The notes under the pieces are model-generated. The model worked only from the letters and a program-made list of their open reading frames with translations, was not told the origin of the DNA and did no database searches. Shown here piece by piece: positions 5,457-44,070 of a stretch of 64,000 bases of DNA. How positions within the stretch are numbered: position 1 is the stretch's first letter; every line of letters starts with the position of its first letter. This stretch comes from Candidatus Woesearchaeota archaeon (GTDB taxonomy: Archaea; Nanobdellota; Nanobdellia; Woesearchaeales; UBA119). Where the stretch lies: positions 13,881 to 77,880 of the forward strand of contig JASGME010000001.1 of NCBI GenBank assembly GCA_030156615.1, read 5' to 3'. The translations under genes were made by a program, and so were the position numbers.

Positions 5457-6632
5457 CTAACCAAGCCATTTCTCTTTAAACCTTTTAAATCTATTGTTCT
5501 CTATAGCATCTCTAATATCATTCATTAACTTCTCCATAAAATAGAGATTATGATAAGAAGCAATAGCATAAGCAGAAAATTCTTTTGCCTTAAATAAATG
5601 ATTTAAATAGCTCTTTGAATACCTTTTGCACATCTTGCAATCGCAATTCTCGTCTATTGCAGACTTGTCTCCTGCGAATCTGTTATTTGTAATCTTTATC
5701 CTGAATTTATTCTTCCTGTTTCCTCCTGATTCTGGAGTTATTAGAATATAGCCGGCTCTTCCTATCATTGTAGGACTTACACAATCAAAGCTGTCTATGC
5801 CATAAGATACCGATTCTATTATATCTTCAATAGCTCCTATCCCTAAAAGATGGACAGGCTTTTCCTTATCTAAGAAAGGTTGAAGCCAACCAAGCGTTTC
5901 GTACATCTTGTTCCTTCCAAAAGAACCACCAATTCCAAATCCGTCAAAATCCATTGATGTTATCGCTTTTGCGCTCCTTTCCCGTAATTCCCGGAATAAT
6001 CCTCCTTGGATTATTCCATAGATTGCTTGACTGCTTTTTTTCTCTTTATGAAAGGCTAGGCATCGTTTAGCCCATCTCTCTGTTCTTTCAGCTGCTTCCT
6101 TTGTTTCATCATAATCTGCTGAAGGTGGATTGCATTCGTCTAAAGCAAGTATTATATTTGCTCCTATGTCGTGCTGGATTTCAATAGATTTCTCAGGACT
6201 GAGAAGGTGTAAGCTCTTGTCATATATCGATCTAAAATAAACTCCTTCTTCGCTAATCTTTGCTATTGAAGCCTCCTTTGATGGCTTTTTTTCAATCTCG
6301 TATTCAAACTTGGATCTTCCAAGAATTGCTCCTTTTCCTAAGCTGAATGCCTGAAAACCACCACTATCGCTCATGAATGGTTTTCTTATCCCGGAAAATT
6401 TCTGAATTCCTCCAAATTCTCTTATTATTTCAGCTCCCGGTCTAAGACTTAGATGATATGTGTTTGCGATGAGCATCTGAATCATAAGCTCTTCAATATC
6501 AAAAGCAGTTAGACTTTTTATGGCTGCCTTAGTAGCAACAGGAACAAATGCAGGTGTTTTAACTACAAAGTCATCTATCTTGATTTCGCCAACTCTGGCT
6601 CCTCCTTCCTTTTTAATTACATTAAATTCCAT
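5457..6632 (-). CDS. tgt: tRNA-guanine transglycosylase family protein, catalytic (beta/alpha)8 core only
   Basis: TGT motifs LIANTYHLSLRPG, DSGGFQAFSLG and LGIGAIEDI are present, with a zinc subdomain CDCKMCKRYSKSYLNHL. At 391 aa it has no C-terminal PUA-type domains. Confidence 0.7.
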   Translation of the reverse strand: MEFNVIKKEGGARVGEIKIDDFVVKTPAFVPVATKAAIKSLTAFDIEELMIQMLIANTYHLSLRPGAEIIREFGGIQKFSGIRKPFMSDSGGFQAFSLGKGAILGRSKFEYEIEKKPSKEASIAKISEEGVYFRSIYDKSLHLLSPEKSIEIQHDIGANIILALDECNPPSADYDETKEAAERTERWAKRCLAFHKEKKSSQAIYGIIQGGLFRELRERSAKAITSMDFDGFGIGGSFGRNKMYETLGWLQPFLDKEKPVHLLGIGAIEDIIESVSYGIDSFDCVSPTMIGRAGYILITPESGGNRKNKFRIKITNNRFAGDKSAIDENCDCKMCKRYSKSYLNHLFKAKEFSAYAIASYHNLYFMEKLMNDIRDAIENNRFKRFKEKWLG

Positions 6633-6773
6633 CTTTTTTACTTCTTTTGTTTAGTTAGATTTATAGAAAAATCAGGATTCTTTTAACATTTGTGATTTAT
6701 CTTTTATTATTCTAAAGTCTTTTCTCATTACTCTCATTAATCAACAGAAAGCATCTAAAGAACTCTTGTACTT

Positions 6774-8660
6774 TTATTTATTCTTGTCAACACTAAACAA
6801 GAAGTCCACAAGCTCTATGTATGTGCTAGCCGAGAATGCCTGAGCAAATGCTCCGTTGCTTGATTGCTCTTCAGCATCGCTTAGCTCTGATGCATAGCCA
6901 ATTGAATGCTCAAATAAGATGTCGTATGTTGAAGCACTCAGGATCTTTGCTATATATTTTCCATATCTCTTCTTATCAAAATGTCCAAGGACAATTGCTG
7001 CAATATTATTCATGAAATACCATGAATCACCTCTATGATAGCTTGCTGAATCTTCTCCTGTGTGTCTTGAATGAAACAACTTTGATTTCTTTGATATTGT
7101 CGCAAAGCCTCCCCAATCAAGCCATAGCTCATCAAAAGCGTTCGTAAAGCATAGCCTCCACTGATGCTCTTCAAGCAAAGTAGGACAGAAATAATAAGCT
7201 AAAAAGATGTTAGGTCTGAGCCAAGGATTCTTAAGATTGTCAACCAAATACGAACCATTCCAGAATTCTTGCCTCGTCTTGTTTTTAATCTCAGTTGCAA
7301 TTTCGCTGTACTTCTTCTCCGAAGTAAGCCAATTCATTTTTTCAGCAAGATATATTATCATGGCCTGAATTTCTATATTGAATCCTTCCCTTTCATCAAT
7401 CTGATAAACAGAATCCATCCATGTTTCGTTTGAATTTGAATGAATTAGTCCATCCCTTAGATAATATCGTAAAATGGCGTCAAGCTCTCTTTTAGATAGC
7501 TCAATGAATTTTTCCATCTCTTTCTTTTTGAACGGAGCTTTTTTGTTGATTTTATAATCCCCTTCTCTACTTAGGAAAGTATCAAAGATTCTCTTGAATA
7601 TGAATGGAAAAGCATCTATACTGAATATGCCTTCTTTAGCATTCAGATTTGTTTTTATCTTACCATTTATCATCTGACTGAGCATACGAATTGCCAGTTC
7701 CAATCCTTTCTGCTTGTCTTCTTTTAATAGCCAATACAATGAGATTGCTTCATCCCTTGCCCATTCATCATAGAACCAGGGAATTCCTGCCATAATGAAT
7801 CTATTATCTACATTTAATATCTTCATATTTCTCTCCGCGAGTGAGTAAGCAAAATCAAGATGTGGTGATTCTAAGCCATAGTTAGGCAACTGCTCAAGAC
7901 TTTGTTCTAATTTATCAAATTTTGAAAATAATTTCTTTGCCTTTTTAAGAGCATAATCCCTGTTTCTGCTAGGCACAATAACGATTTTATCAGTCCAGAA
8001 AGACAATGGACAATACACATACCTTTTGAAAGGAGGAGAATTTCTTATCATATCATATTCATAATTCATCTCTTTCCATTCATCAATGCTTTTGGAAGAA
8101 CCAGAAAAGGCAATGGCAATAAACAACTCAAATTCCTTCCCGCCCTCACTTTCATCTTCTCTTTTATCTGTTATCTTTTTGAAATGTATTAATGCAATAT
8201 TTCCATTAACTTCATATTCATAAATCCTGCCCCATTCTCTGTTATCAAACACTTTTTTAACATCGAAGTGAGGCTTTACTACTTCATAAGCGTCAAGTTT
8301 TAAAAATAATGCCCTTGCATCTTCTGGCATAAAATAATTTTCTATAATTGATTCATGCTTTAAGCTAACCTTTCTTTTTTCTATGATAGTATCACTAATA
8401 GATTCATCTGCCTCAGGAAGCTCAATTGAATCAATAATCTTAAATAATTGGTTATCTGTAGTGCTGTGCCAAAAGAATCCATCATATCTGCTCTTCAAAG
8501 ATAAAGGTCTTGAAAAGAAACAGCCCCCCTCATCACCTAAAAGAATCCTTGAGTTTTCTTTAGCTTCTACAAATAAACTCTTTTTGTTTCCTTTATATTC
8601 AACATCAATCAATTGAACCACCTCTATAAAATAATGCGGCATCTTCAGGAGCGACAACAT
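6774..8660 (-). CDS. Glycogen debranching enzyme-like (amylo-alpha-1,6-glucosidase, GDE C-terminal (alpha/alpha)6 barrel type)
   Basis: Segments include GIPWFYDEWARDEAISLYWLL, WLRPNIFLAYYF and GDSWYFMNNIAAIVL. Length 628 aa is typical of archaeal GDE_N+GDE_C proteins. It sits in the glycogen cluster. Confidence 0.5.
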   Translation of the reverse strand: MLSLLKMPHYFIEVVQLIDVEYKGNKKSLFVEAKENSRILLGDEGGCFFSRPLSLKSRYDGFFWHSTTDNQLFKIIDSIELPEADESISDTIIEKRKVSLKHESIIENYFMPEDARALFLKLDAYEVVKPHFDVKKVFDNREWGRIYEYEVNGNIALIHFKKITDKREDESEGGKEFELFIAIAFSGSSKSIDEWKEMNYEYDMIRNSPPFKRYVYCPLSFWTDKIVIVPSRNRDYALKKAKKLFSKFDKLEQSLEQLPNYGLESPHLDFAYSLAERNMKILNVDNRFIMAGIPWFYDEWARDEAISLYWLLKEDKQKGLELAIRMLSQMINGKIKTNLNAKEGIFSIDAFPFIFKRIFDTFLSREGDYKINKKAPFKKKEMEKFIELSKRELDAILRYYLRDGLIHSNSNETWMDSVYQIDEREGFNIEIQAMIIYLAEKMNWLTSEKKYSEIATEIKNKTRQEFWNGSYLVDNLKNPWLRPNIFLAYYFCPTLLEEHQWRLCFTNAFDELWLDWGGFATISKKSKLFHSRHTGEDSASYHRGDSWYFMNNIAAIVLGHFDKKRYGKYIAKILSASTYDILFEHSIGYASELSDAEEQSSNGAFAQAFSASTYIELVDFLFSVDKNK

Positions 8661-35878: not shown

Positions 35879-38182
35879 TCAGCTACCTCTCCATTTATCC
35901 TTCCTGCTTTCCTCATTAAGCCATTCTTCCCATTCCCTATAAGCTTCATCAACATCAAGCTTTCCCCTCTTCTTTGTAATCCTGTCGCAGATCATATGAA
36001 ACTCATCATTTGCTCTTATAACGAATTGAGCTTCAAGAAGCTCAGGATTTTTCAATTTATCAGAGATTGAAACAATATCCATCTTTGTTTTAGCCCTAAG
36101 TTCAATGTTCTGCCATAATGCATCCCAATTCCCTGCCCATTCCTTTACATTTGAAGCAATAGATTTAAGGATTTCAGAATCTCCATGAATTAAGTCAGGT
36201 GTCGCAACTAATTCATCATTCTCTGGATTATATTTCATCAAATCAACAAAGCCTTTCTCAGCCTGCGGATCATTTTCCCAATCCTTTCTTACTTCAGTAA
36301 TCTGTGTAACCCTTCTCCATCTGTGTAATCCATCCGATGAGCGTATTGGATTTGCAACCACAATAATGTCAGTAGCCTTGAATGATGTTCTTGGCACTTC
36401 TAAATCATTTACAACCCTGTCAAATACACCATAAGGACTATCCCCATGAATCGTTCCTGCAACAACATTTGCAAGAGCTCCAACCCTCATTGCTTCGTAT
36501 AATGCCCTTGCTTCAGTGCTTCTGACCTCTCCAATAATTAGTGCAGAATCGCCTAATCTTAGTGTTGTTCTAATGCCTTCATCTGCAGAAACCTCTGAGC
36601 TTCCCTGTGTTAAAGCAGCTGCGACCTTCATAGATTGAATATTATATCCCAAATCTCTTAAAGAAGAAACAGGCAGTTCTAAAGTATCTTCAATAGTTAT
36701 TATTCTTACTGATCTCATAATCTCTGTCATCAATGAACCAAGAAGAGAGGTTTTACCAGCGCTTCTTGTCCCGGCAACCAACATAGTTCTTGAACCATCT
36801 ATCAGAAAGCTAAGCAAGCCTGCTGCTAAAGGATTTATCATTTTAGTTTTTATGAAAAGAGGCAATGTCCAAGGCTTTTCTCTATGCCTTCTGAATGCAT
36901 ATCCTAGGCCAGTTGGATTTAAAGGAGGAGAAATAACGGCAACCCTTGCCCTAGCATCCTCAAGTTGTATCTCTGTATCCAAGATTGGGTTTGCCTCGTC
37001 AAGAGGCCTTCCTGAAATCATTCTAAGTTTTGTTGCCCATGATTCTGCTTCATCAATCGTTGGAACTATATTTGTAATACAATCCTGATATTTTTGATGA
37101 TTTATGAACAGGCAAGTTCTTCCCTGTGGACTGTTTAATACAACATCCTGAATATTTTCATCACTTAAAACAAGCTCAAGAAGTCCAAATCCTACTGTAT
37201 ATCTTACAAGGATTTTTGCCAGTTCATCTATCTCTTCATCCTTTAATGCTAATCCCCTATGATTAACTAATTCTTCAATAAGTCCTTTACCAATATGAAA
37301 AAATACTTCGCGCATCCTCTCAGGGTCAATAAAATCCTCTCTGCTAGGTTTATGCTCTGATATGATATTTCTTGCAGTATCAAGAAGTTCATACTTTTCC
37401 TCAGAAAGCGAGAATTCTGGTGGGGATAAATGATACATCCTGAGCACAGAATCAGGAAATTCAAAGATTGTTATCTGAGTTCCATCTTTTAATATGTAAG
37501 AATCGATAGGATTGCCTCCTTCAGGATATGAAGCCATTAGTTTTGTATACATAAAGTTCGGTTTTACACTAGGACTGAAAATCTTAGAATAAACATCTCT
37601 CTCACCTTTTTTCAAGCCTGCCAAATAAGGCAATGCTGCAAATATCATTCGTGTTTTCTTTAATTTTTCAATTACTTCTTCAAGTTCTCCGACTAATTGC
37701 TCAAGATATTGCTTTTTATTCTCATCAGTGGTTTTTCTTAAGAGAATGTTTACCTCTCTCTTTAACCTCGTAAGCTGGACAAAAGAGCCAATAGGATCTT
37801 CAAGAAGAGAATCTGTTATTATCTTCTTAAATCTTAAAAAGAAGTCCATTACCTCTTGAATGGGTTGTTCTGGGGATGAAGCTAGGTTTAAGAATGACAT
37901 GAGCTCTTTATCTTTGTTTAATCTTGTGAATAAATTAACAATCTCAGAAAGCATAACTGTTTGATGAAAGTCATATTCATAATCTCTCGTCTTTCTTAAT
38001 ACAATCTTAGTAGCAGCATCGTTCTCTCCTATTGCTCTTAAAACAGCTTTCATACACTGCGGATTTTCCTCAATTGAAGGAGAAAAAGGACAATCCTTGC
38101 AATCAAATTCTATGATTGTATCTTCTCCTTCTCTATCAACATCATATTTGCAATATGCAGGCATCCTGCCACCTCTAATCAC
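35879..38182 (-). CDS. Type II/IV secretion system ATPase, FlaI/PilB-like, with an N-terminal Cys4 extension
   Basis: Walker A is GTRSAGKTSLLGS. Walker B / Asp box is IIGEVRSTEA. His box is AGTIHGDS. The N-terminal 45 aa carry C-x16-C-x2-C-x11-C (CKYD...CKDC...C). Confidence 0.75.
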   Translation of the reverse strand: MIRGGRMPAYCKYDVDREGEDTIIEFDCKDCPFSPSIEENPQCMKAVLRAIGENDAATKIVLRKTRDYEYDFHQTVMLSEIVNLFTRLNKDKELMSFLNLASSPEQPIQEVMDFFLRFKKIITDSLLEDPIGSFVQLTRLKREVNILLRKTTDENKKQYLEQLVGELEEVIEKLKKTRMIFAALPYLAGLKKGERDVYSKIFSPSVKPNFMYTKLMASYPEGGNPIDSYILKDGTQITIFEFPDSVLRMYHLSPPEFSLSEEKYELLDTARNIISEHKPSREDFIDPERMREVFFHIGKGLIEELVNHRGLALKDEEIDELAKILVRYTVGFGLLELVLSDENIQDVVLNSPQGRTCLFINHQKYQDCITNIVPTIDEAESWATKLRMISGRPLDEANPILDTEIQLEDARARVAVISPPLNPTGLGYAFRRHREKPWTLPLFIKTKMINPLAAGLLSFLIDGSRTMLVAGTRSAGKTSLLGSLMTEIMRSVRIITIEDTLELPVSSLRDLGYNIQSMKVAAALTQGSSEVSADEGIRTTLRLGDSALIIGEVRSTEARALYEAMRVGALANVVAGTIHGDSPYGVFDRVVNDLEVPRTSFKATDIIVVANPIRSSDGLHRWRRVTQITEVRKDWENDPQAEKGFVDLMKYNPENDELVATPDLIHGDSEILKSIASNVKEWAGNWDALWQNIELRAKTKMDIVSISDKLKNPELLEAQFVIRANDEFHMICDRITKKRGKLDVDEAYREWEEWLNEESRKDKWRGS

Positions 38183-38671
38183 TTTCTAAAGAATGATTCT
38201 TTTAATAATTTTGCTTTTATACACTTATTGTTATCCATAAACTTTGCCTATTGATAACCTTTTTTATTGTTTTATTACACTTCTTCTCTTATTAAACTAT
38301 ATAAGGTAACAGGAATCATATAAAATGGATAACTTCTCAACTTTTTATCAAAATCCAATTATCTTTGTTGTTATATAAAACTGTTGGGGTAGTTAATCAA
38401 TTAAAATAAGTTGATTTATTCAAAGAGAAAAAGATTTCTCATTAATTTTCAATTAAAGAACGAATTCTTTAAATTTGATAGAACTTTAAGAGTCTTATAA
38501 ATATAGCTTTCTATAATTAATAAAAGTAAGAAAAAAATCTACTTTTTTAATCTTAGCCGTTCTTTCTTTTCTTTTGTTAACCTTTAAATACAATGAAGAG
38601 AGACTTAGGTTCTTGTTTATTCCACACATGAATTGAAAAAATTTATAAAGATTTTTGGTTAACATTTTCTT

Positions 38672-39838
38672 ATGAAGCTTTATTCGCCACCTATCATAAG
38701 TTTGAAACAAAAATTAGTTCTTGGGCATGGCGTAAATATTGTATGGAATGATGTAATAGGCAGGTACATGCGATCTAAAGGAGAAAAAATACAATATTTT
38801 TATCCTTCTTGGAATCATCAAGGAAAAAGAGCTGATCAGTTGGATAGCAGCGAATTAGAAAAAAAAATATTGGCGTTAGAACAAGATATGAGAAGAGAAT
38901 TATCATGTTTTGGTATTGAAGAATCATACACATTGTACAGAGATACTGATGAAATATCCAAAAAAAACTCCCAAAAATATTTCATGCAATTGATCCAAAG
39001 AGGTTTTATTGTAGAGCACAACGGAGAATATCTCTTGGACTTATCAAGAATTTACACTAAAACTAGAATAAAAGAACACTTAGAATCTGTAAGATATAAT
39101 CCTCCACATTTGAAAAAAAGAATATTTGACTTGACCAAAACTCTAACTGGATTATATCCAATCTCCAAAAGAAGAAGGTATGCTACTCCCATTCCAAATT
39201 CTGTTTTTAGTATAAATCCTATTTTTGATTTAGCAGTTAGTCCTGCATTATTCTCTGAAGAACCAGTCGATTATTGTATAGATGGAAACAGAACTCTCCT
39301 AAGAGGGACATTTATCCCATTTGCAATTTGGAGTGCACTTTTTGACAAGCCTTTTGCACGCAATTGCTGTGCTCACGGATTCTTAAATCTAACTGATGGA
39401 TTAGAGAATATGAAAATTGAAAAGATTAAAAAAAGTATTGGCGATCCTATTATTGATTCAGATGTTCTAAGGTATTGCGTGCTTTTACCAACAAACTCCT
39501 TAAAAGATATGATAATTAACCAAGATACTTTGATGAAGGGTAAAAAGATGATTTATCGAGCTTCAAATTTAGCAAAATACTTTGTAAAACATTATGGACC
39601 CCAACAAAATAACCAACAGGGTGATGAAGAAATAGAAAAAATGATTGAAACGATGAGAATCCCTTTTGCTATGGAAATTTTTAGAAACCGAATTTATTGG
39701 TTAAGTAAAAAGATAGAACGAGGAGAAAAAACTACTGAAGATGATATAAAAGAATATCAAAAACTGATAAAATCTATAAGTCCTATTTTTCCTTCGACCG
39801 TAAAGAGGATAGATGAAATACTGAAATGGAAAGCCTAA
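38672..39838 (+). CDS. Methionyl-tRNA synthetase-like protein, truncated and motif-degenerate (paralog or pseudo-enzyme)
   Basis: The class Ia aaRS scaffold is recognisable. The HIGH region reads PPIISLKQKLVLGHGV (HIGH replaced by LGHG). The DxxARYxRxxG...GTDEHG region reads NDVIGRYMRSKGEKIQYFYPSWNHQG. IGKDIxRFHAIYWPAML reads IDGNRTLLRGTFIPFAIWSALF. FAHGFxxVxGxKMSKS reads CAHGFLNLTDGLENMKIEKIKKS. The anticodon-domain start DSLRYYY reads DVLRYCV. The CP zinc knuckle is deleted. Length is 388 aa, versus 500 aa or more for a MetRS core. Confidence 0.5.
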   Translation: MKLYSPPIISLKQKLVLGHGVNIVWNDVIGRYMRSKGEKIQYFYPSWNHQGKRADQLDSSELEKKILALEQDMRRELSCFGIEESYTLYRDTDEISKKNSQKYFMQLIQRGFIVEHNGEYLLDLSRIYTKTRIKEHLESVRYNPPHLKKRIFDLTKTLTGLYPISKRRRYATPIPNSVFSINPIFDLAVSPALFSEEPVDYCIDGNRTLLRGTFIPFAIWSALFDKPFARNCCAHGFLNLTDGLENMKIEKIKKSIGDPIIDSDVLRYCVLLPTNSLKDMIINQDTLMKGKKMIYRASNLAKYFVKHYGPQQNNQQGDEEIEKMIETMRIPFAMEIFRNRIYWLSKKIERGEKTTEDDIKEYQKLIKSISPIFPSTVKRIDEILKWKA

Positions 39839-40527
39839 AACAAAAATATCAAAAAATATCTCAAGAATTTTTGAAGAATATAAAAAAAGGAAATAAAGTT
39901 GTTTGTGCTTTGATCACTGGCTCTTATTTTAATAACAAGTTATCAGAAAATTCAGATATTGATATCTTTATTATAACATCAGATTCTGATATCGCAAAAA
40001 GAGGAGTAAAAAGAATCAGCAATGTCAAAATATCATTTTTTATGAATTCTTTAATGATGGTTAAAAGATTATTAAATGAAGAAAAAGATCTCTTTAAAAG
40101 ACCAACAGCAGAAAGAATAGTTTTTTCTGATTGTATTTATGGAGAGGAATTATCAAAAAAATTAAAAGAAGAAGCAAGTAATGTCATTAAAAGGAAACTC
40201 CCTAAGTTGACAAAAAAGGAAATATATGATTACGGATGGTATTTATATGATAAAGTGATCGTTCTAAAGAGAGATTTAGATAAAATTCAGAAACAATTTA
40301 TGATAAATGATTTGTTTTGGATTTGTACAGATATATTTTTCAAGATAAACAGAACCTATAAACCACATAATAAATATGTTCTTCCAAAAATAAAAGAATT
40401 GGATTCTATTTTTTATGAATATCTTAAAGAGCATCTAACTGGTAGTGAGGAAGCAATTTTCAAAATGACAGACTATCTTCAAAAAGAAATGGGATTCCAC
40501 CAAAAAGATTATTCTATAACCTATTAA
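39826..40527 (+). CDS. Pol-beta superfamily nucleotidyltransferase (ANT/KNTase-like: NTase domain plus C-terminal helical domain)
   Basis: hG[GS] motif and metal-binding Asp motif: CALITGSYFNNKLSENSDIDIFIIT. The start overlaps the stop region of the MetRS-like gene by 13 nt. Confidence 0.5.
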   Translation: MESLKQKYQKISQEFLKNIKKGNKVVCALITGSYFNNKLSENSDIDIFIITSDSDIAKRGVKRISNVKISFFMNSLMMVKRLLNEEKDLFKRPTAERIVFSDCIYGEELSKKLKEEASNVIKRKLPKLTKKEIYDYGWYLYDKVIVLKRDLDKIQKQFMINDLFWICTDIFFKINRTYKPHNKYVLPKIKELDSIFYEYLKEHLTGSEEAIFKMTDYLQKEMGFHQKDYSITY

Positions 40528-40789
40528 AGGTAATTTTTTGTCTCATTATATCATTTTACAAAAAACATTGATCTCTTTTTTGAAATTTTGATTTGGAAAT
40601 CTTTGGTTTCCAACTATTTTTTTATGAAGTGAAAACTAGCACATATTCTATTAATAATGATCTTTATAAGTTTGAGAGTTCGTTTTAGTTGAAATTTAAT
40701 TGAAACTAAAATTTGGCGAAATTTTTGGAATGTCTATTAATTTATATAGATGGAAATTCTTTTTCTTTCTTTTAATGTTGTGAATCTTT

Positions 40790-41542
40790 TTATTCTTTTA
40801 GAAAATCAACGATTAAATCAGGGTATTTTTCCAGTGCCCTGCGAAACCCGTGCCCAGTATCTGTTTCTATTATTCTGCAATTCTTTTTATTCCAAAAAAG
40901 GGTTTTACTATGTTTAATTGAAACTGTTCTATCTTTTGGGTCATGAAAAAGTAAGATAGGCTTGTTCAACAACCTTAAATAAAAATCAGGGGAAATCTCT
41001 TTGAATTTATTTATTTCCTTCTGCAATGAATTAAAATTAAATCTGTATAAGTGCTTATATGCTCTCTTAACGAATGATGTTAAGGCATCTAGGTCCTGCT
41101 CATCTCCATTAATGTTGTGTTTCTTATAATCTAGTACAGGAGAAGCCAAAATAATTTTAGAGATGTCTTCAGAACAAGCAGCCAGTCCACAGGCAATAGC
41201 TCCACTAAAACTCTCTCCAACTACATTAATTTTTTCAATCTCAAAATTCACTTTACTCATATCCCAAAGGTTTGTAGCCTCTCCTTTTTTTAACTCTTTG
41301 ATGAAAAATAATAAATCATGAACAGGATTTGTTTTTAGAAATTTTCCTTCGCTCTGAAAAGACCCCTTAAACCTAGGGAAAAATACATTGAATCCTTTTT
41401 CATAGAAAAAGTACATAGTTTCATCGTTTTTGTTGGAACTTGGAAAACCATCTAAAAGGATTACAGCGTCACTCTTATCTTTATGAGTTAAAAACTCAAA
41501 GAATATTTTTCCATAATATGCTTTTAAGATATACAAAACCAT
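40790..41542 (-). CDS. Alpha/beta hydrolase fold protein (dienelactone hydrolase/peptidase S9-like)
   Basis: Nucleophile elbow is VVGESFSGAIA (G-x-S-x-G). Putative catalytic Asp/His are in HDPKD...TDTGHGF. Confidence 0.5.
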   Translation of the reverse strand: MVLYILKAYYGKIFFEFLTHKDKSDAVILLDGFPSSNKNDETMYFFYEKGFNVFFPRFKGSFQSEGKFLKTNPVHDLLFFIKELKKGEATNLWDMSKVNFEIEKINVVGESFSGAIACGLAACSEDISKIILASPVLDYKKHNINGDEQDLDALTSFVKRAYKHLYRFNFNSLQKEINKFKEISPDFYLRLLNKPILLFHDPKDRTVSIKHSKTLFWNKKNCRIIETDTGHGFRRALEKYPDLIVDFLKE

Positions 41543-41727: not shown

Positions 41728-42369
41728 TTATCTCAATAGACCAAATTCTTTATTCAATCTTTCTTTAAGTTCTTTTGAATCTTTAAACAAGATAGTCTTA
41801 AATCCATAATCCTTTGCTTTACTTATATTTCCCTCGTAATCATCTATAAAAAGAACCTCCTCTGGATTAATCTTATGTTTATTACAGATTTTGTTTAGGA
41901 TTTCAAAATCAAGTTTATTTTTCTCAATATCGCAAGAGAAGATTACATCATCAAATAAGGCATCTATTTCTAACTCTGACTTAATCTGTTTTACTGTAGT
42001 AATATCCATATTGGATAACAAAATCTTTGTAATCTTAATTTCCTTTATGATCTCGATCATATAATAATCAATCATAAGATTTTTTTGATTGTTTCTTGCA
42101 AGAACACGCCAACCTATATTTAACTCTGTAACTTCTGATAACTTAGTCCAAAATTCTTTCTCACTAATTCTGTTTTTGTCAAATTCAGACTTATACTCTT
42201 TGAAGAAAGATTCAACTTTGCTTGGACAACCTCTGTTTAGAGATACAAACTTATCAAAATGCTCAATATCAAAATGACCAATAACATCTCCAAAATCAAA
42301 TATAACTGCTTTTATCTTCGCAAAATAAAGTAATAATTGTAGCTTAATAATTCTTTCTAAAATAATCAA
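41728..42369 (-). CDS. HAD-superfamily hydrolase-like protein with a non-canonical motif I
   Basis: Motif I reads AVIFDFGDVIG (D-F-G-D instead of D-x-D-G). Motif III/IV-like segments are LLSNMD and FIDDYEGN. Confidence 0.45.
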   Translation of the reverse strand: MIILERIIKLQLLLYFAKIKAVIFDFGDVIGHFDIEHFDKFVSLNRGCPSKVESFFKEYKSEFDKNRISEKEFWTKLSEVTELNIGWRVLARNNQKNLMIDYYMIEIIKEIKITKILLSNMDITTVKQIKSELEIDALFDDVIFSCDIEKNKLDFEILNKICNKHKINPEEVLFIDDYEGNISKAKDYGFKTILFKDSKELKERLNKEFGLLR

Positions 42370-42370
42370 T

Positions 42371-43360
42371 TTATTTTATCCTTTCTGTTTCAGTTTTAAT
42401 CTCGTGAGAATTCTCAACTAGTATTGCATTAATCTTATGTATTTTGTTATTAATCTCTATTTTACCTATTTCATATTTTATCACATTATTCTTAATAGAA
42501 GATATCTTCTTAATCAGAGACATTTCCCACTGCAAAATATCAAAATTGTCATTCGGCACAACATATGTTTCTACAGTTGAACCTTCATATTTTTTATAAG
42601 GCCTGTCATAAAAACCAAACTGATCATACAAAATGTCTCCACAGAGATAAATCTCTTTCGCTACAAGACCAAGTTCTTCAAGAACATATTTCTTTGCGAT
42701 TTCTTTTATTTCCTTCTGATTTTCATACAATCTCTTTTTTGGCTTAAGCTCATCTGAATGACTGGAGTCATTAATGCATATTATTTTCCATTTCTCTTCA
42801 GAGAATTCTAAGATGTTGATGCATGAATTATCTTGTTTGATATCTATAAATTCATCTTTCTCCCGTCTTTGTGAGAGATTAATAAGTACTGAGTTTGCTC
42901 CGGAATGTGCAACAATTGCAATTACACCATTCTCTTTTTCCAACTCTTTTAAGAATGATTTTAACCTTTTTATAAGATCCCAGATGTTTTCTCCTCCAAA
43001 AGGCCTTATATCATACTTTGACATTCCAGAATTCAACAAACGCATATATTCTTCAATCCATTTTTCTGATGAAGGCTTTACTCTTCCGTGCTGGTACTCA
43101 CGTAATCTTTTATCTTCTATTATTGGTAAGCCTGTTCTCCTGCTTATAATCTCTGCAGTCTGCTTTGCCCTAGTGAAATCACTCGAGAATAGTTTATCAA
43201 ATTTTATGTTTTTTATTCTGTTTGCAAGCCTCTCTGCCTGCATGATTCCAGTTTGATTTAATGGTTCTTCCTTTGGTTGATCATCGTCATCGCTGCTCTT
43301 TATGTTGTGATTCGTTTCGCCATGTCTCATAAGATAGATTTTCAATGCCATTTCATTCAT
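42371..43360 (-). CDS. Histidine phosphatase (phosphoglycerate mutase family) fused to an uncharacterised C-terminal domain of about 120 aa
   Basis: RHG motif is IYLMRHGETNHN. The second catalytic His is in VAHSGA. The C-terminal half has no recognisable motif. Confidence 0.55.
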   Translation of the reverse strand: MNEMALKIYLMRHGETNHNIKSSDDDDQPKEEPLNQTGIMQAERLANRIKNIKFDKLFSSDFTRAKQTAEIISRRTGLPIIEDKRLREYQHGRVKPSSEKWIEEYMRLLNSGMSKYDIRPFGGENIWDLIKRLKSFLKELEKENGVIAIVAHSGANSVLINLSQRREKDEFIDIKQDNSCINILEFSEEKWKIICINDSSHSDELKPKKRLYENQKEIKEIAKKYVLEELGLVAKEIYLCGDILYDQFGFYDRPYKKYEGSTVETYVVPNDNFDILQWEMSLIKKISSIKNNVIKYEIGKIEINNKIHKINAILVENSHEIKTETERIK

Positions 43361-43380
43361 ATTAATTTAAGTTGATATCA

Positions 43381-44070
43381 TTAATCCTGTTCTTTATCAG
43401 TTCCTTCAGCACATACTTCTCTATTGTATGATGATAGAGTTAACAAATGAGTACAATCATTTACTCTTGAGTCTCTTACTTTTCCATTGTCAACTTCAAA
43501 ATAAGAGATTGAGCAATTCTCTAAATTAAAATATGCCATTTCTTTCATATGCAACTGAAACATACGTAGTATCAACAACCTGAAAAAAATACCATGTCCT
43601 ATTAAAAGCACAGTATCGTTAGAATGTTCTCTTTTAAGAGATTCCAAAAAAGATTGTGCTCTTTTTTCAACATCAAAATAATTTTCTCCATTTTCTGGTC
43701 TGAATTGGTAATCTTTTAGTCCTGATAATTTTAGTGCTTCTTTATATTCCTCATGATTCCTGAATTTTCCAATGCTTCGTTCATTAATCTCTTGAGTAAA
43801 GATAATTTTTGGATCTACAATAAAGGGTTTTATATATTCTAATGTTTCTCTTGCCCGCTCAAGTTTGCTACAATAAATAAAATCTATCTTCTTATCCTTA
43901 AAAAACAAGCCTGCTCTTTTTGCCTGCTCTATGCCCGTGTTGCTCAGACCAGCATTAAGAGTTCTTCCTGAATTTTGGGAAATCTTCTCCCCATGTCTAA
44001 CAAGGTATAATTTCATTGTCATAATAAGCCTCCAATTTTTTCTTAATACTCTTCTTCGTCTGTTCTCCAA
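43381..44070 (-). CDS. Histidine phosphatase (phosphoglycerate mutase family)
   Basis: LYLVRHGEKI is followed by LIGHGIFFR. The likely true start is the internal MKLY, avoiding overlap with the Kae1 stop. Confidence 0.6.
   Translation of the reverse strand: MENRRRRVLRKNWRLIMTMKLYLVRHGEKISQNSGRTLNAGLSNTGIEQAKRAGLFFKDKKIDFIYCSKLERARETLEYIKPFIVDPKIIFTQEINERSIGKFRNHEEYKEALKLSGLKDYQFRPENGENYFDVEKRAQSFLESLKREHSNDTVLLIGHGIFFRLLILRMFQLHMKEMAYFNLENCSISYFEVDNGKVRDSRVNDCTHLLTLSSYNREVCAEGTDKEQD

Follow-up and report, generated by a model that had tools for sequence, protein, structure and literature searches.

A methionyl-tRNA synthetase-like protein conserved beside a nucleotidyltransferase and an alpha/beta-hydrolase in DPANN archaea

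What would a shortened relative of methionyl-tRNA synthetase (MetRS) do when its gene runs directly into that of a nucleotidyltransferase (NTase)? The question is raised by a stretch of 64,000 nucleotides (nt) from a Candidatus Woesearchaeota archaeon (contig JASGME010000001.1, positions 13,881 to 77,880), referred to here as the window, in which a first-pass annotation made from the letters of the DNA had picked out two open reading frames of 388 and 233 amino acids, overlapping by 13 nt. Both reading frames and their overlap are confirmed here. The annotation was right as to the NTase partner but had overlooked a third conserved partner, an alpha/beta-hydrolase, and what it described as a pair is a module of three genes, whose locus tags run consecutively:

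38672..39838, + strand: protein A, a 388-amino-acid class Ia aminoacyl-tRNA synthetase (aaRS)-like paralog with the MetRS fold (PWQ87_42)
39826..40527, + strand: protein B, a 233-amino-acid NTase of the Pol-beta superfamily (PWQ87_43)
39826..39838, + strand: the A/B overlap, 13 nt, ATGGAAAGCCTAA, the stop region of A lying over the start of B
40790..41542, - strand: protein C, a 250-amino-acid alpha/beta-hydrolase convergent with B (PWQ87_44)

We propose that A, B and C make up a single conserved module, found in DPANN archaea, whose role lies outside translation and whose substrate is most likely a small molecule; we put the probability of this reading at roughly one half.

The resemblance of A to MetRS is weak in sequence and strong in fold. 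In single-sequence searches, the Pfam model tRNA-synt_1g matches only residues 13-122, the N-terminal Rossmann half (expect value, E, 5.7e-6), and an NCBIfam valyl-tRNA synthetase model matches residues 129-175, the class Ia 'ISRQR' region; against the metG models A scores 36.6 bits where the cut-off is 336.35 (TIGR00398) and 23.9 where it is 587 (NF001100). A profile built from 16 family members picks up two stretches of E. coli MetRS (E 1.8e-7). The AlphaFold2 model of A (predicted local distance difference test, pLDDT, 85.7; predicted template-modelling score 0.87) finds MetRS structures as its best Foldseek matches (E 1e-13, template-modelling (TM) score 0.70-0.77). Of the 388 residues of A, 364 are covered by its alignment with MetRS. 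The first-pass annotation was therefore right in its core observation, the likeness of A to MetRS. Like canonical MetRS, A comprises a first Rossmann half, a connective peptide (CP) region, an 'ISRxR..PIP'-type motif, a second Rossmann half, a 'D.LRY' motif and a helical domain; the class Ia 'ISRQR-WG-PIP'-type motif reads YPISKxRxFATxIP in A. Unlike canonical MetRS, A lacks the first His of the HIGH motif, the KMSKS motif, the zinc knuckles and the pocket residues. There is no CxxC pair, and the C-terminal helical domain (residues 284-388) is short at about 100 amino acids, bearing out the zinc-knuckle loss and the shortened anticodon-binding domain that had been noted. Across the 16 members, which are 39-77% identical, 47 columns are invariant, a constraint that argues for a functional protein and not a pseudogene.

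The motifs of A were read from the alignment of the 16 family members and from a MAFFT alignment that set about 70 of its short relatives beside canonical MetRS; its residues, such as Asn48 and Arg207, are thus placed by sequence alignment and not by superposed structure. The HIGH motif corresponds to V-L-G-H at residues 16-19, with the first His gone; its first position is V, F, S, T, I or K in the family and G-H alone is invariant. The earlier description of a HIGH motif reduced to LGHG stands as to the degradation of the motif, but not as to the aligned segment. The same annotation had KMSKS changed to KIKKS, which we do not uphold. Relative to canonical MetRS the family has a deletion of about seven residues exactly at KMSKS, the flanking loop is variable in length and unconserved (for example DKFYEKIN or EDFHRK in relatives), and the string KIKKS, found only in A and its closest relatives, is a coincidence within that loop.

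The substrate-binding positions have changed as well. In E. coli MetRS we take D52 to bind the alpha-amino group of the substrate, W253, Y260 and H301 to form the methionine pocket, and the acid of the G-[KH]-[DE] motif to bind ribose. The D52 position, the Asp of 'DEHG', is an invariant Asn48 in the A family; the ribose-binding acid is replaced by Arg207 in A and by Arg or Lys in the family; and W253, Y260 and H301 have become Ile184, Pro191 and a variable R, H or P. The site matching N391, which recognises the anticodon in MetRS, is not conserved. With the first HIGH His, the alpha-amino Asp, the ribose acid, the methionine pocket and KMSKS all lost, A is not a canonical synthetase, and the alignments support its classification as a degenerate, non-canonical MetRS-like paralog. 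Recognition of methionine or methionyl-adenylate, put forward in the first-pass annotation, is unlikely, since A retains none of the MetRS residues that serve the alpha-amino group, the side chain or the ribose. Where MetRS has acidic pocket residues, the A family has neutral or basic ones (Asn for Asp, Arg/Lys for Asp/Glu), a change that suggests a ligand with no free alpha-ammonium group, perhaps one carrying an anionic group.

Conservation of the gene neighbourhood was assessed in a census that combined contigs of diverse A-family members, a scan of species-representative genomes, a local iterative search and a table of gene junctions. All 13 distinct loci of the subfamily have an adjacent Pol-beta NTase, and 12 of them also have an adjacent C, the exception being a 4-kb contig (L015), where an upstream open reading frame was considered as C and rejected. 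The arrangements, with arrowheads giving the direction of transcription, are:

A> B> <C: the window, L006, L011, L012
<C A> B>: L001/L016, L017, L003
A> B>, with C not seen on the 4-kb contig: L015
A> <(NUDIX-B fusion) <C: L020
A> <(B-C fusion of 475-490 amino acids): L007, L009, L013, L014

A and B overlap at every locus: by 8-35 nt if both genes run in one direction, and by 4-86 nt where their 3' ends converge. The relatives either place C ahead of A or have B and C overlapping or fused; the window instead has a 262-nt spacer between B and C. The B-C fusions, present in four lineages, carry the Pol-beta motif in their N-terminal half, and between the C-terminal half in L007 and the separate C of the window the identity is 31% (E 1e-28). 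The NUDIX-B fusion, seen in one lineage, has an intact NUDIX box and an NTase part clearly orthologous to B. The NTase association proposed in the first-pass annotation is thus conserved. In the closest relatives, whose A is 77% identical, A, B and C are the sole genes that the surrounding 17-21 kb have in common with the window, which indicates that the trio behaves as a unit. The family is rare: only 4 of about 185,000 species-representative genomes have it, and by gene content these are all archaeal, most of them under a DPANN label. One contig, L016 (JAFCCB010000004.1, GCA_017610445.1), is titled 'Candidatus Dojkabacteria bacterium', of the bacterial candidate phyla radiation (CPR), and is likely to be mis-binned or mislabelled; it is archaeal on the evidence of the MCM, TBP, eIF-1A, aIF2-beta, ATP-dependent DNA ligase and ribosomal protein L15e genes that it encodes. 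A class I S-adenosylmethionine (SAM) methyltransferase gene lies beside the module at L012 (3679-4443, - strand) and L015 (2738-3490, - strand).

B passes two Pfam models (PF18765, 30.3 against a cut-off of 26.9; PF01909, 26.5 against 21), and its motif G32-S33...D44-x-D46 is intact and invariant among the family, such that the enzyme looks catalytically competent. As in kanamycin NTase, the NTase domain comes first and a helical domain makes up the C-terminal part. Foldseek searches with the model of B (pLDDT 73) return ANT(4') (E about 3e-6), LinB, AAD(9), Tam41 and HalB as structural neighbours, at E values of about 1e-6 and probability 1.0 with TM scores of only 0.38-0.45. B thus shares with the kanamycin and lincosamide NTases (ANT(4'), LinB, AAD(9)) the Pol-beta domain, the helical domain and the GS...DxD motif, but its sequence scores lie far below the resistance-family cut-offs (ANT(9), 17.1 against 340) and its TM scores are low. 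The label 'ANT-type' that it had been given is apt for the two-domain architecture, and goes too far as a family assignment. On the model of the MntA antitoxin B scores 21.9 bits against a cut-off of 60 (E 1e-4). Its helical domain carries R176-x4-H181 in most members, with Asn in place of His181 in L006.

C has a nucleophile elbow of the form G-x-S-F-[SG]-[GA] (Ser111), an Asp in FHDxxD and a His in GHG; the signatures GESFSG or GTSFGA, FHDxxD and GHG or GHL are kept in both free and fused forms. From these residues C looks to be a catalytically competent serine esterase with a Ser-Asp-His triad. The window's copy falls slightly under the Pfam cut-offs (Hydrolase_4, 24.2 against 27), several of which the L020 ortholog passes. 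The family comprises 58 clusters at 41-82% identity, with weak affinities to esterases and to aminoacyl-cleaving hydrolases of families S9, S15 and S33, and a weak match to the macrolide hydrolase EstT. In one locus, L011, a Peptidase_S66 gene (LD-carboxypeptidase/MccF family; 6585-7574, + strand) follows C immediately.

The A family is part of a wider clan. An exhaustive profile search added about 60 representatives of 370-410 amino acids in several subfamilies, some of which keep a KMSKS-like motif ('PMSKHS', 'RMSNRNKN'), and some of those the zinc knuckles also, while others have lost KMSKS. The Asp-to-Asn change is common to all members and the ribose-binding acid is lost in all but one. 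In a KMSKS-retaining subfamily (L021-L023) the gene immediately after the short paralog is a genuine metG (573 amino acids; TIGR00398, 448 bits against 336), which shows that the short paralog coexists with a real MetRS. At L021 (8001-12323, and likewise at L022 and L023) this paralog has 383 amino acids, is called 'isoleucyl-tRNA synthetase' in one source and ends 35 nt before metG. There metG is followed by the gene of a 295-amino-acid protein, here termed D, and then by that of a Lnu/ANT(2'')-like NTase (Lnu-like, NCBIfam E 7e-9), with a P-loop kinase gene on the opposite strand; an aldo-keto reductase gene and a radical-SAM-like gene are also found nearby.

In the largest KMSKS-less sister subfamily (L024-L034), which shares about 22% identity with A, the flanking hydrolase belongs to the C family: phmmer E values against the window's C run from 5e-78 to 4e-24. 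As NTase partner the subfamily has either a MobA-like NTP_transf_3 enzyme or protein D, whose Pol-beta motif is weak. MobA-like enzymes differ in fold from the Pol-beta NTases and act on small-molecule phosphates. At L026 (6196-7383, + strand) a 395-amino-acid fusion of MobA-like NTP_transf_3 and alpha/beta-hydrolase (Abhydrolase_11) domains is encoded directly downstream of the sister aaRS-like gene. The NTase-hydrolase fusion arose independently twice, with two NTase folds. The invariant core is a short aaRS-like protein, esterase C, which is the best conserved of its partners across the clan, and some NTase whose fold is interchangeable; that one fold can be replaced by another argues that it is the nucleotidyl-transfer step itself that is required. 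Some loci of this subfamily add a gene for a His_Phos_1 phosphatase, a dTMP-kinase-like protein, a glycosyltransferase, a radical-SAM protein or a SAM hydroxide adenosyltransferase. At L034 (2534-4248, + strand) C and the aaRS-like gene are directly preceded by SAM_HAT and radical-SAM genes; this arrangement, seen once, may hint at a connection with SAM or methionine.

Two further groups were noted among the relatives. The subfamily P0029-P0032 (448-480 amino acids) has a CxxC...CxxC knuckle and 'RMSNRNKN' but G-Q in place of G-H in the HIGH motif, and may represent an intermediate stage of degeneration. P0071, P0075, P0091, P0096 and P0116 are 'mini' Val/IleRS-like proteins of 434-494 amino acids, with HIGH, DW-ISRQR and KMSKS intact and no CP1 editing domain.

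Around the trio, the window is archaeal and of a DPANN lineage, with an archaeal rRNA operon that holds tRNA-Ala in its spacer. The remaining features at the locus are:

38183..38671, 489 nt, GC content 0.223: divergent intergenic spacer between the FlaI-type ATPase gene and A, presumably the promoter region
40528..40789, 262 nt, GC content 0.225: spacer separating the convergent 3' ends of B and C
41728-42369, - strand: HAD phosphatase, on the strand of C and beyond it
42371-43360, - strand: first His_Phos_1 phosphatase, 329 amino acids, with an extra C-terminal region of about 130 amino acids that has no Pfam match
43381-44070, - strand: second His_Phos_1 phosphatase, in tandem with the first

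The spacers bear out the long AT-rich flanks of about 490 and 260 nt that had been described; the GC content of the window averages 0.343 when the rRNA operon is left aside. An Rfam scan that took in both spacers gave, up to E 1, two chance-level matches only, both within coding sequences. The further idea that the pair is an accessory insertion is suggestive only: the GC content is slightly low and the trio is the sole synteny with close relatives, but the neighbours are ordinary housekeeping genes, among them those for an Obg-like GTPase, the FlaI-type ATPase, Kae1, a class Ic aaRS, Pop5 and the proteasome alpha subunit. The FlaI/T2SSE-type secretion ATPase (35879-38182, - strand, 767 amino acids), divergent from A, has an N-terminal extension of about 420 amino acids that has no Pfam match. 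The phosphatases at 41728-44070 may be accessory parts of the module, since a His_Phos_1 gene also follows C directly in the sister-subfamily locus L025, though the link is uncertain.

From this arrangement we infer a class of chemistry for the module. A, derived from a class Ia synthetase of the MetRS type, would have lost ATP-dependent amino-acid activation while keeping a strongly constrained pocket, with which it would most likely bind, and perhaps transfer, an acyl, aminoacyl or adenylate-like ligand. B would nucleotidylate the same substrate or its acceptor to give an NMP-X or NDP-X product (a nucleoside mono- or diphosphate linked to a group X), and C would hydrolyse or transfer an ester-linked group. 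NUDIX enzymes hydrolyse nucleoside-diphosphate-X compounds. A nucleotide-linked small molecule is preferred as substrate over tRNA or protein on the basis of the exchange of B for a MobA-like enzyme, the NUDIX fusion, the recurrent phosphatases and the structural neighbours of B.

Several observations weigh against this proposal. No gene for a transporter, a carrier protein or a pathway enzyme recurs consistently at the loci. Given the KMSKS deletion and the degraded HIGH motif, A may have no catalytic activity and serve as a binding or scaffold subunit. What is said of Asn48 and Arg207 depends on aligned sequences; the model of B is of moderate pLDDT and low TM score; and orthology of free B with the NTase half of the fusions or with protein D is not shown beyond GS...DxD (hhalign probability 13-20%). 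Finally, the class Ia architecture of A is complete, with CP region and helical domain both present, and binding of a tRNA acceptor arm is conceivable.

Of the other explanations, the one that survives best, though it too is unlikely, is the inactivation of a xenobiotic or antibiotic, in which B and C would disable a toxic small molecule, possibly a natural aaRS inhibitor that mimics an aminoacyl-adenylate, and a dead A would act as decoy, sensor or specificity subunit. Aminoglycoside and lincosamide NTases are the nearest structures to B, yet all matches to resistance families, ANT(9) as given above and Lnu with 36 against 300, are far under the cut-offs; a sister cluster combines a Lnu-like NTase, a P-loop kinase and an aldo-keto reductase near a real metG, but the MobA-like NTases and His-phosphatases of the other sister subfamily are not of resistance type. 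The MccF-family peptidase directly after C would suit this explanation, as would the EstT match of C, the patchy distribution of the family, the differing surroundings in close relatives, the slightly low GC content and the bifunctional fusions, which are generally typical of resistance enzymes. The peptidase, however, is confined to a single locus, and no efflux or regulator genes are linked to the module.

Quite doubtful, in our estimation, is a tRNA-directed role, whereby A would bind the acceptor arm of tRNA or aminoacyl-tRNA, as an acyl donor or so as to present the 3' end to B and C, with B adding nucleotides to that end and C deacylating it. The complete class Ia architecture of A, aligned with MetRS over 364 of 388 residues and with YPISKxRxFATxIP included, would suit such binding, as would the basic isoelectric point of the A-family proteins (8.1-9.3), although one sister-subfamily member has a value of 5.0, the N391-equivalent position is unconserved and the helical domain is cut short. 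Cyclodipeptide synthases (CDPSs) offer a precedent, being class I aaRS-like enzymes that use aminoacyl-tRNA with neither HIGH nor KMSKS (PMC3105412). The partner NTase, on the other hand, is in some loci a MobA-like enzyme, and that fold is known only for small-molecule substrates; the NUDIX fusion and phosphatases better suit nucleotide-linked metabolites. TruB and TrmY-type genes occur near L003, L005 and L006, a cysteinyl-tRNA synthetase gene near L003, metG beside a sister subfamily, and Kae1 and the class Ic aaRS near the window's copy, but such neighbours may merely reflect compact genomes rich in housekeeping genes.

It is improbable that the module is an MNT-type toxin-antitoxin or defence system, in which B would AMPylate a protein, possibly A itself as a toxin aimed at translation, and C or NUDIX would reverse or tune the effect. 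The MntA match of B and its match to the PADLOC candidate PDC-S09 (E 6e-6) are weak and generic, and PADLOC reports nothing for A or C; the R-x4-H motif in the helical domain of most B proteins is broken by the His181 change in L006. More compatible with the idea are HalB, a defence NTase among the fold matches of B, and the patchy distribution. No locus contains a HEPN-toxin gene, IMG/VR viral contigs hold no relatives, each genome locus has a single copy amid housekeeping genes, and the MobA-like replacement is ill-suited to protein AMPylation. On balance the toxin/regulator pair raised in the first-pass annotation is unsupported.

That A is simply the fast-evolving MetRS of a reduced genome, with coincidental neighbours, is very unlikely indeed: DPANN proteins do evolve fast, and tblastn with canonical MetRS against the 64-kb window and the fetched loci matched the A genes alone and revealed no metG, but the family-wide loss of motifs and substrate-binding residues, the metG score far under its cut-off, the rarity of the family when MetRS is universal, the sister subfamily beside a genuine metG and the conserved, partly fused NTase and hydrolase genes all speak against it. 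Indirectly, the evidence predicts a canonical metG elsewhere in this genome.

A module acting outside translation invites comparison with known aaRS-derived and aaRS-linked systems. Three of them, the hydrazine synthetases, the CDPSs and the ErdS/ErdH and MprF pairs, lend plausibility to the proposed chemistry, but A is set apart by a defining feature from canonical MetRS, the hydrazine-synthetase domains, MshC and the CDPSs, which it resembles as a synthetase core recruited outside translation. Canonical MetRS is universal, whereas the A family is rare and fixed beside an NTase and an esterase. The MetRS-like domains of hydrazine synthetases (PyrN, Spb40, Tri28) catalyse tRNA-independent esterification of an amino acid onto a small-molecule hydroxyl (PMC8664883; bioRxiv 10.1101/2025.08.22.671884). 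Like A they place the MetRS fold outside translation, stand-alone or fused to a partner. PyrN-C, however, has about 550 amino acids with functional HLGH and KFSTG motifs, the ribose-binding Asp420 and two zinc knuckles (bioRxiv 10.1101/2025.08.22.671884), none of which A has, and structurally A is no closer to this domain than to MetRS. Hydrazine synthetases are bacterial, with cupin and lysine N-hydroxylase partners, whereas A belongs to DPANN archaea and is partnered by an NTase and an esterase; of all the lineages, that of L007 alone has a cupin, encoded three genes away, and an N-hydroxylase is absent from all fetched A loci. Membership of A in this group was rejected on motifs and missing partners.

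CDPSs, also aaRS-derived, have dispensed with HIGH, KMSKS and ATP activation and reuse the pocket with pre-activated aminoacyl-tRNA (PMC3105412). They differ from the A module in size and in having no NTase or esterase partners, and A lacks their class Ic (Tyr/TrpRS-like) Rossmann domain. MshC, the CysRS-like cysteine ligase of mycothiol synthesis, keeps HIGH, KMSKS and a zinc-binding Cys site (PMC9736012), whereas A keeps none. A parallel for the esterase is found in ErdS/ErdH and in MprF with its hydrolase, where an aaRS-linked aminoacyl-ester synthase is encoded beside a dedicated Ser-Asp-His alpha/beta-hydrolase that removes the ester, in conserved and often divergent synteny (PMC7334510). 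The <C A> arrangement of L001, L003 and L017 resembles ErdS/ErdH. Those systems, however, rely on a fully active aaRS, a DUF2156 transferase and a lipid acceptor and have no NTase, and neither a DUF2156 domain, a membrane domain nor an active aaRS is present in the A-B-C module. In the searchable literature, outside which most subscription journals lie, we found no account of the A family or of a module of aaRS-like protein, NTase and esterase, in keeping with the first-pass statement that such a pairing is undescribed.

Earlier aaRS paralogs working outside translation (MshC, GluQRS, CDPSs and hydrazine synthetases) each revealed new chemistry, and the genomic signature of the present system is clean: a fixed trio, Rosetta-stone fusions and an NTase exchanged for one of another fold. 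The three proteins are small, soluble and directly expressible, and the series from KMSKS-retaining to KMSKS-less subfamilies offers a way to follow the repurposing of a class I core after the loss of ATP activation. A broader possibility, to be held tentatively and on balance rather unlikely, is that these proteins of 370-410 amino acids form an undescribed clan of class Ia-derived, DPANN-type proteins, all with the Asp-to-Asn change and most with KMSKS lost, that work only in obligate modules with a dedicated esterase and an interchangeable NTase, with activation delegated to a separate enzyme, in what would be a split, tRNA-independent acyl-activation and transfer system acting on a nucleotide-linked metabolite. 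The reduced genomes of DPANN archaea keep few non-essential genes and their metabolic dependence on hosts is poorly understood; if true, such a split system would make or turn over a metabolite important to these host-dependent archaea.

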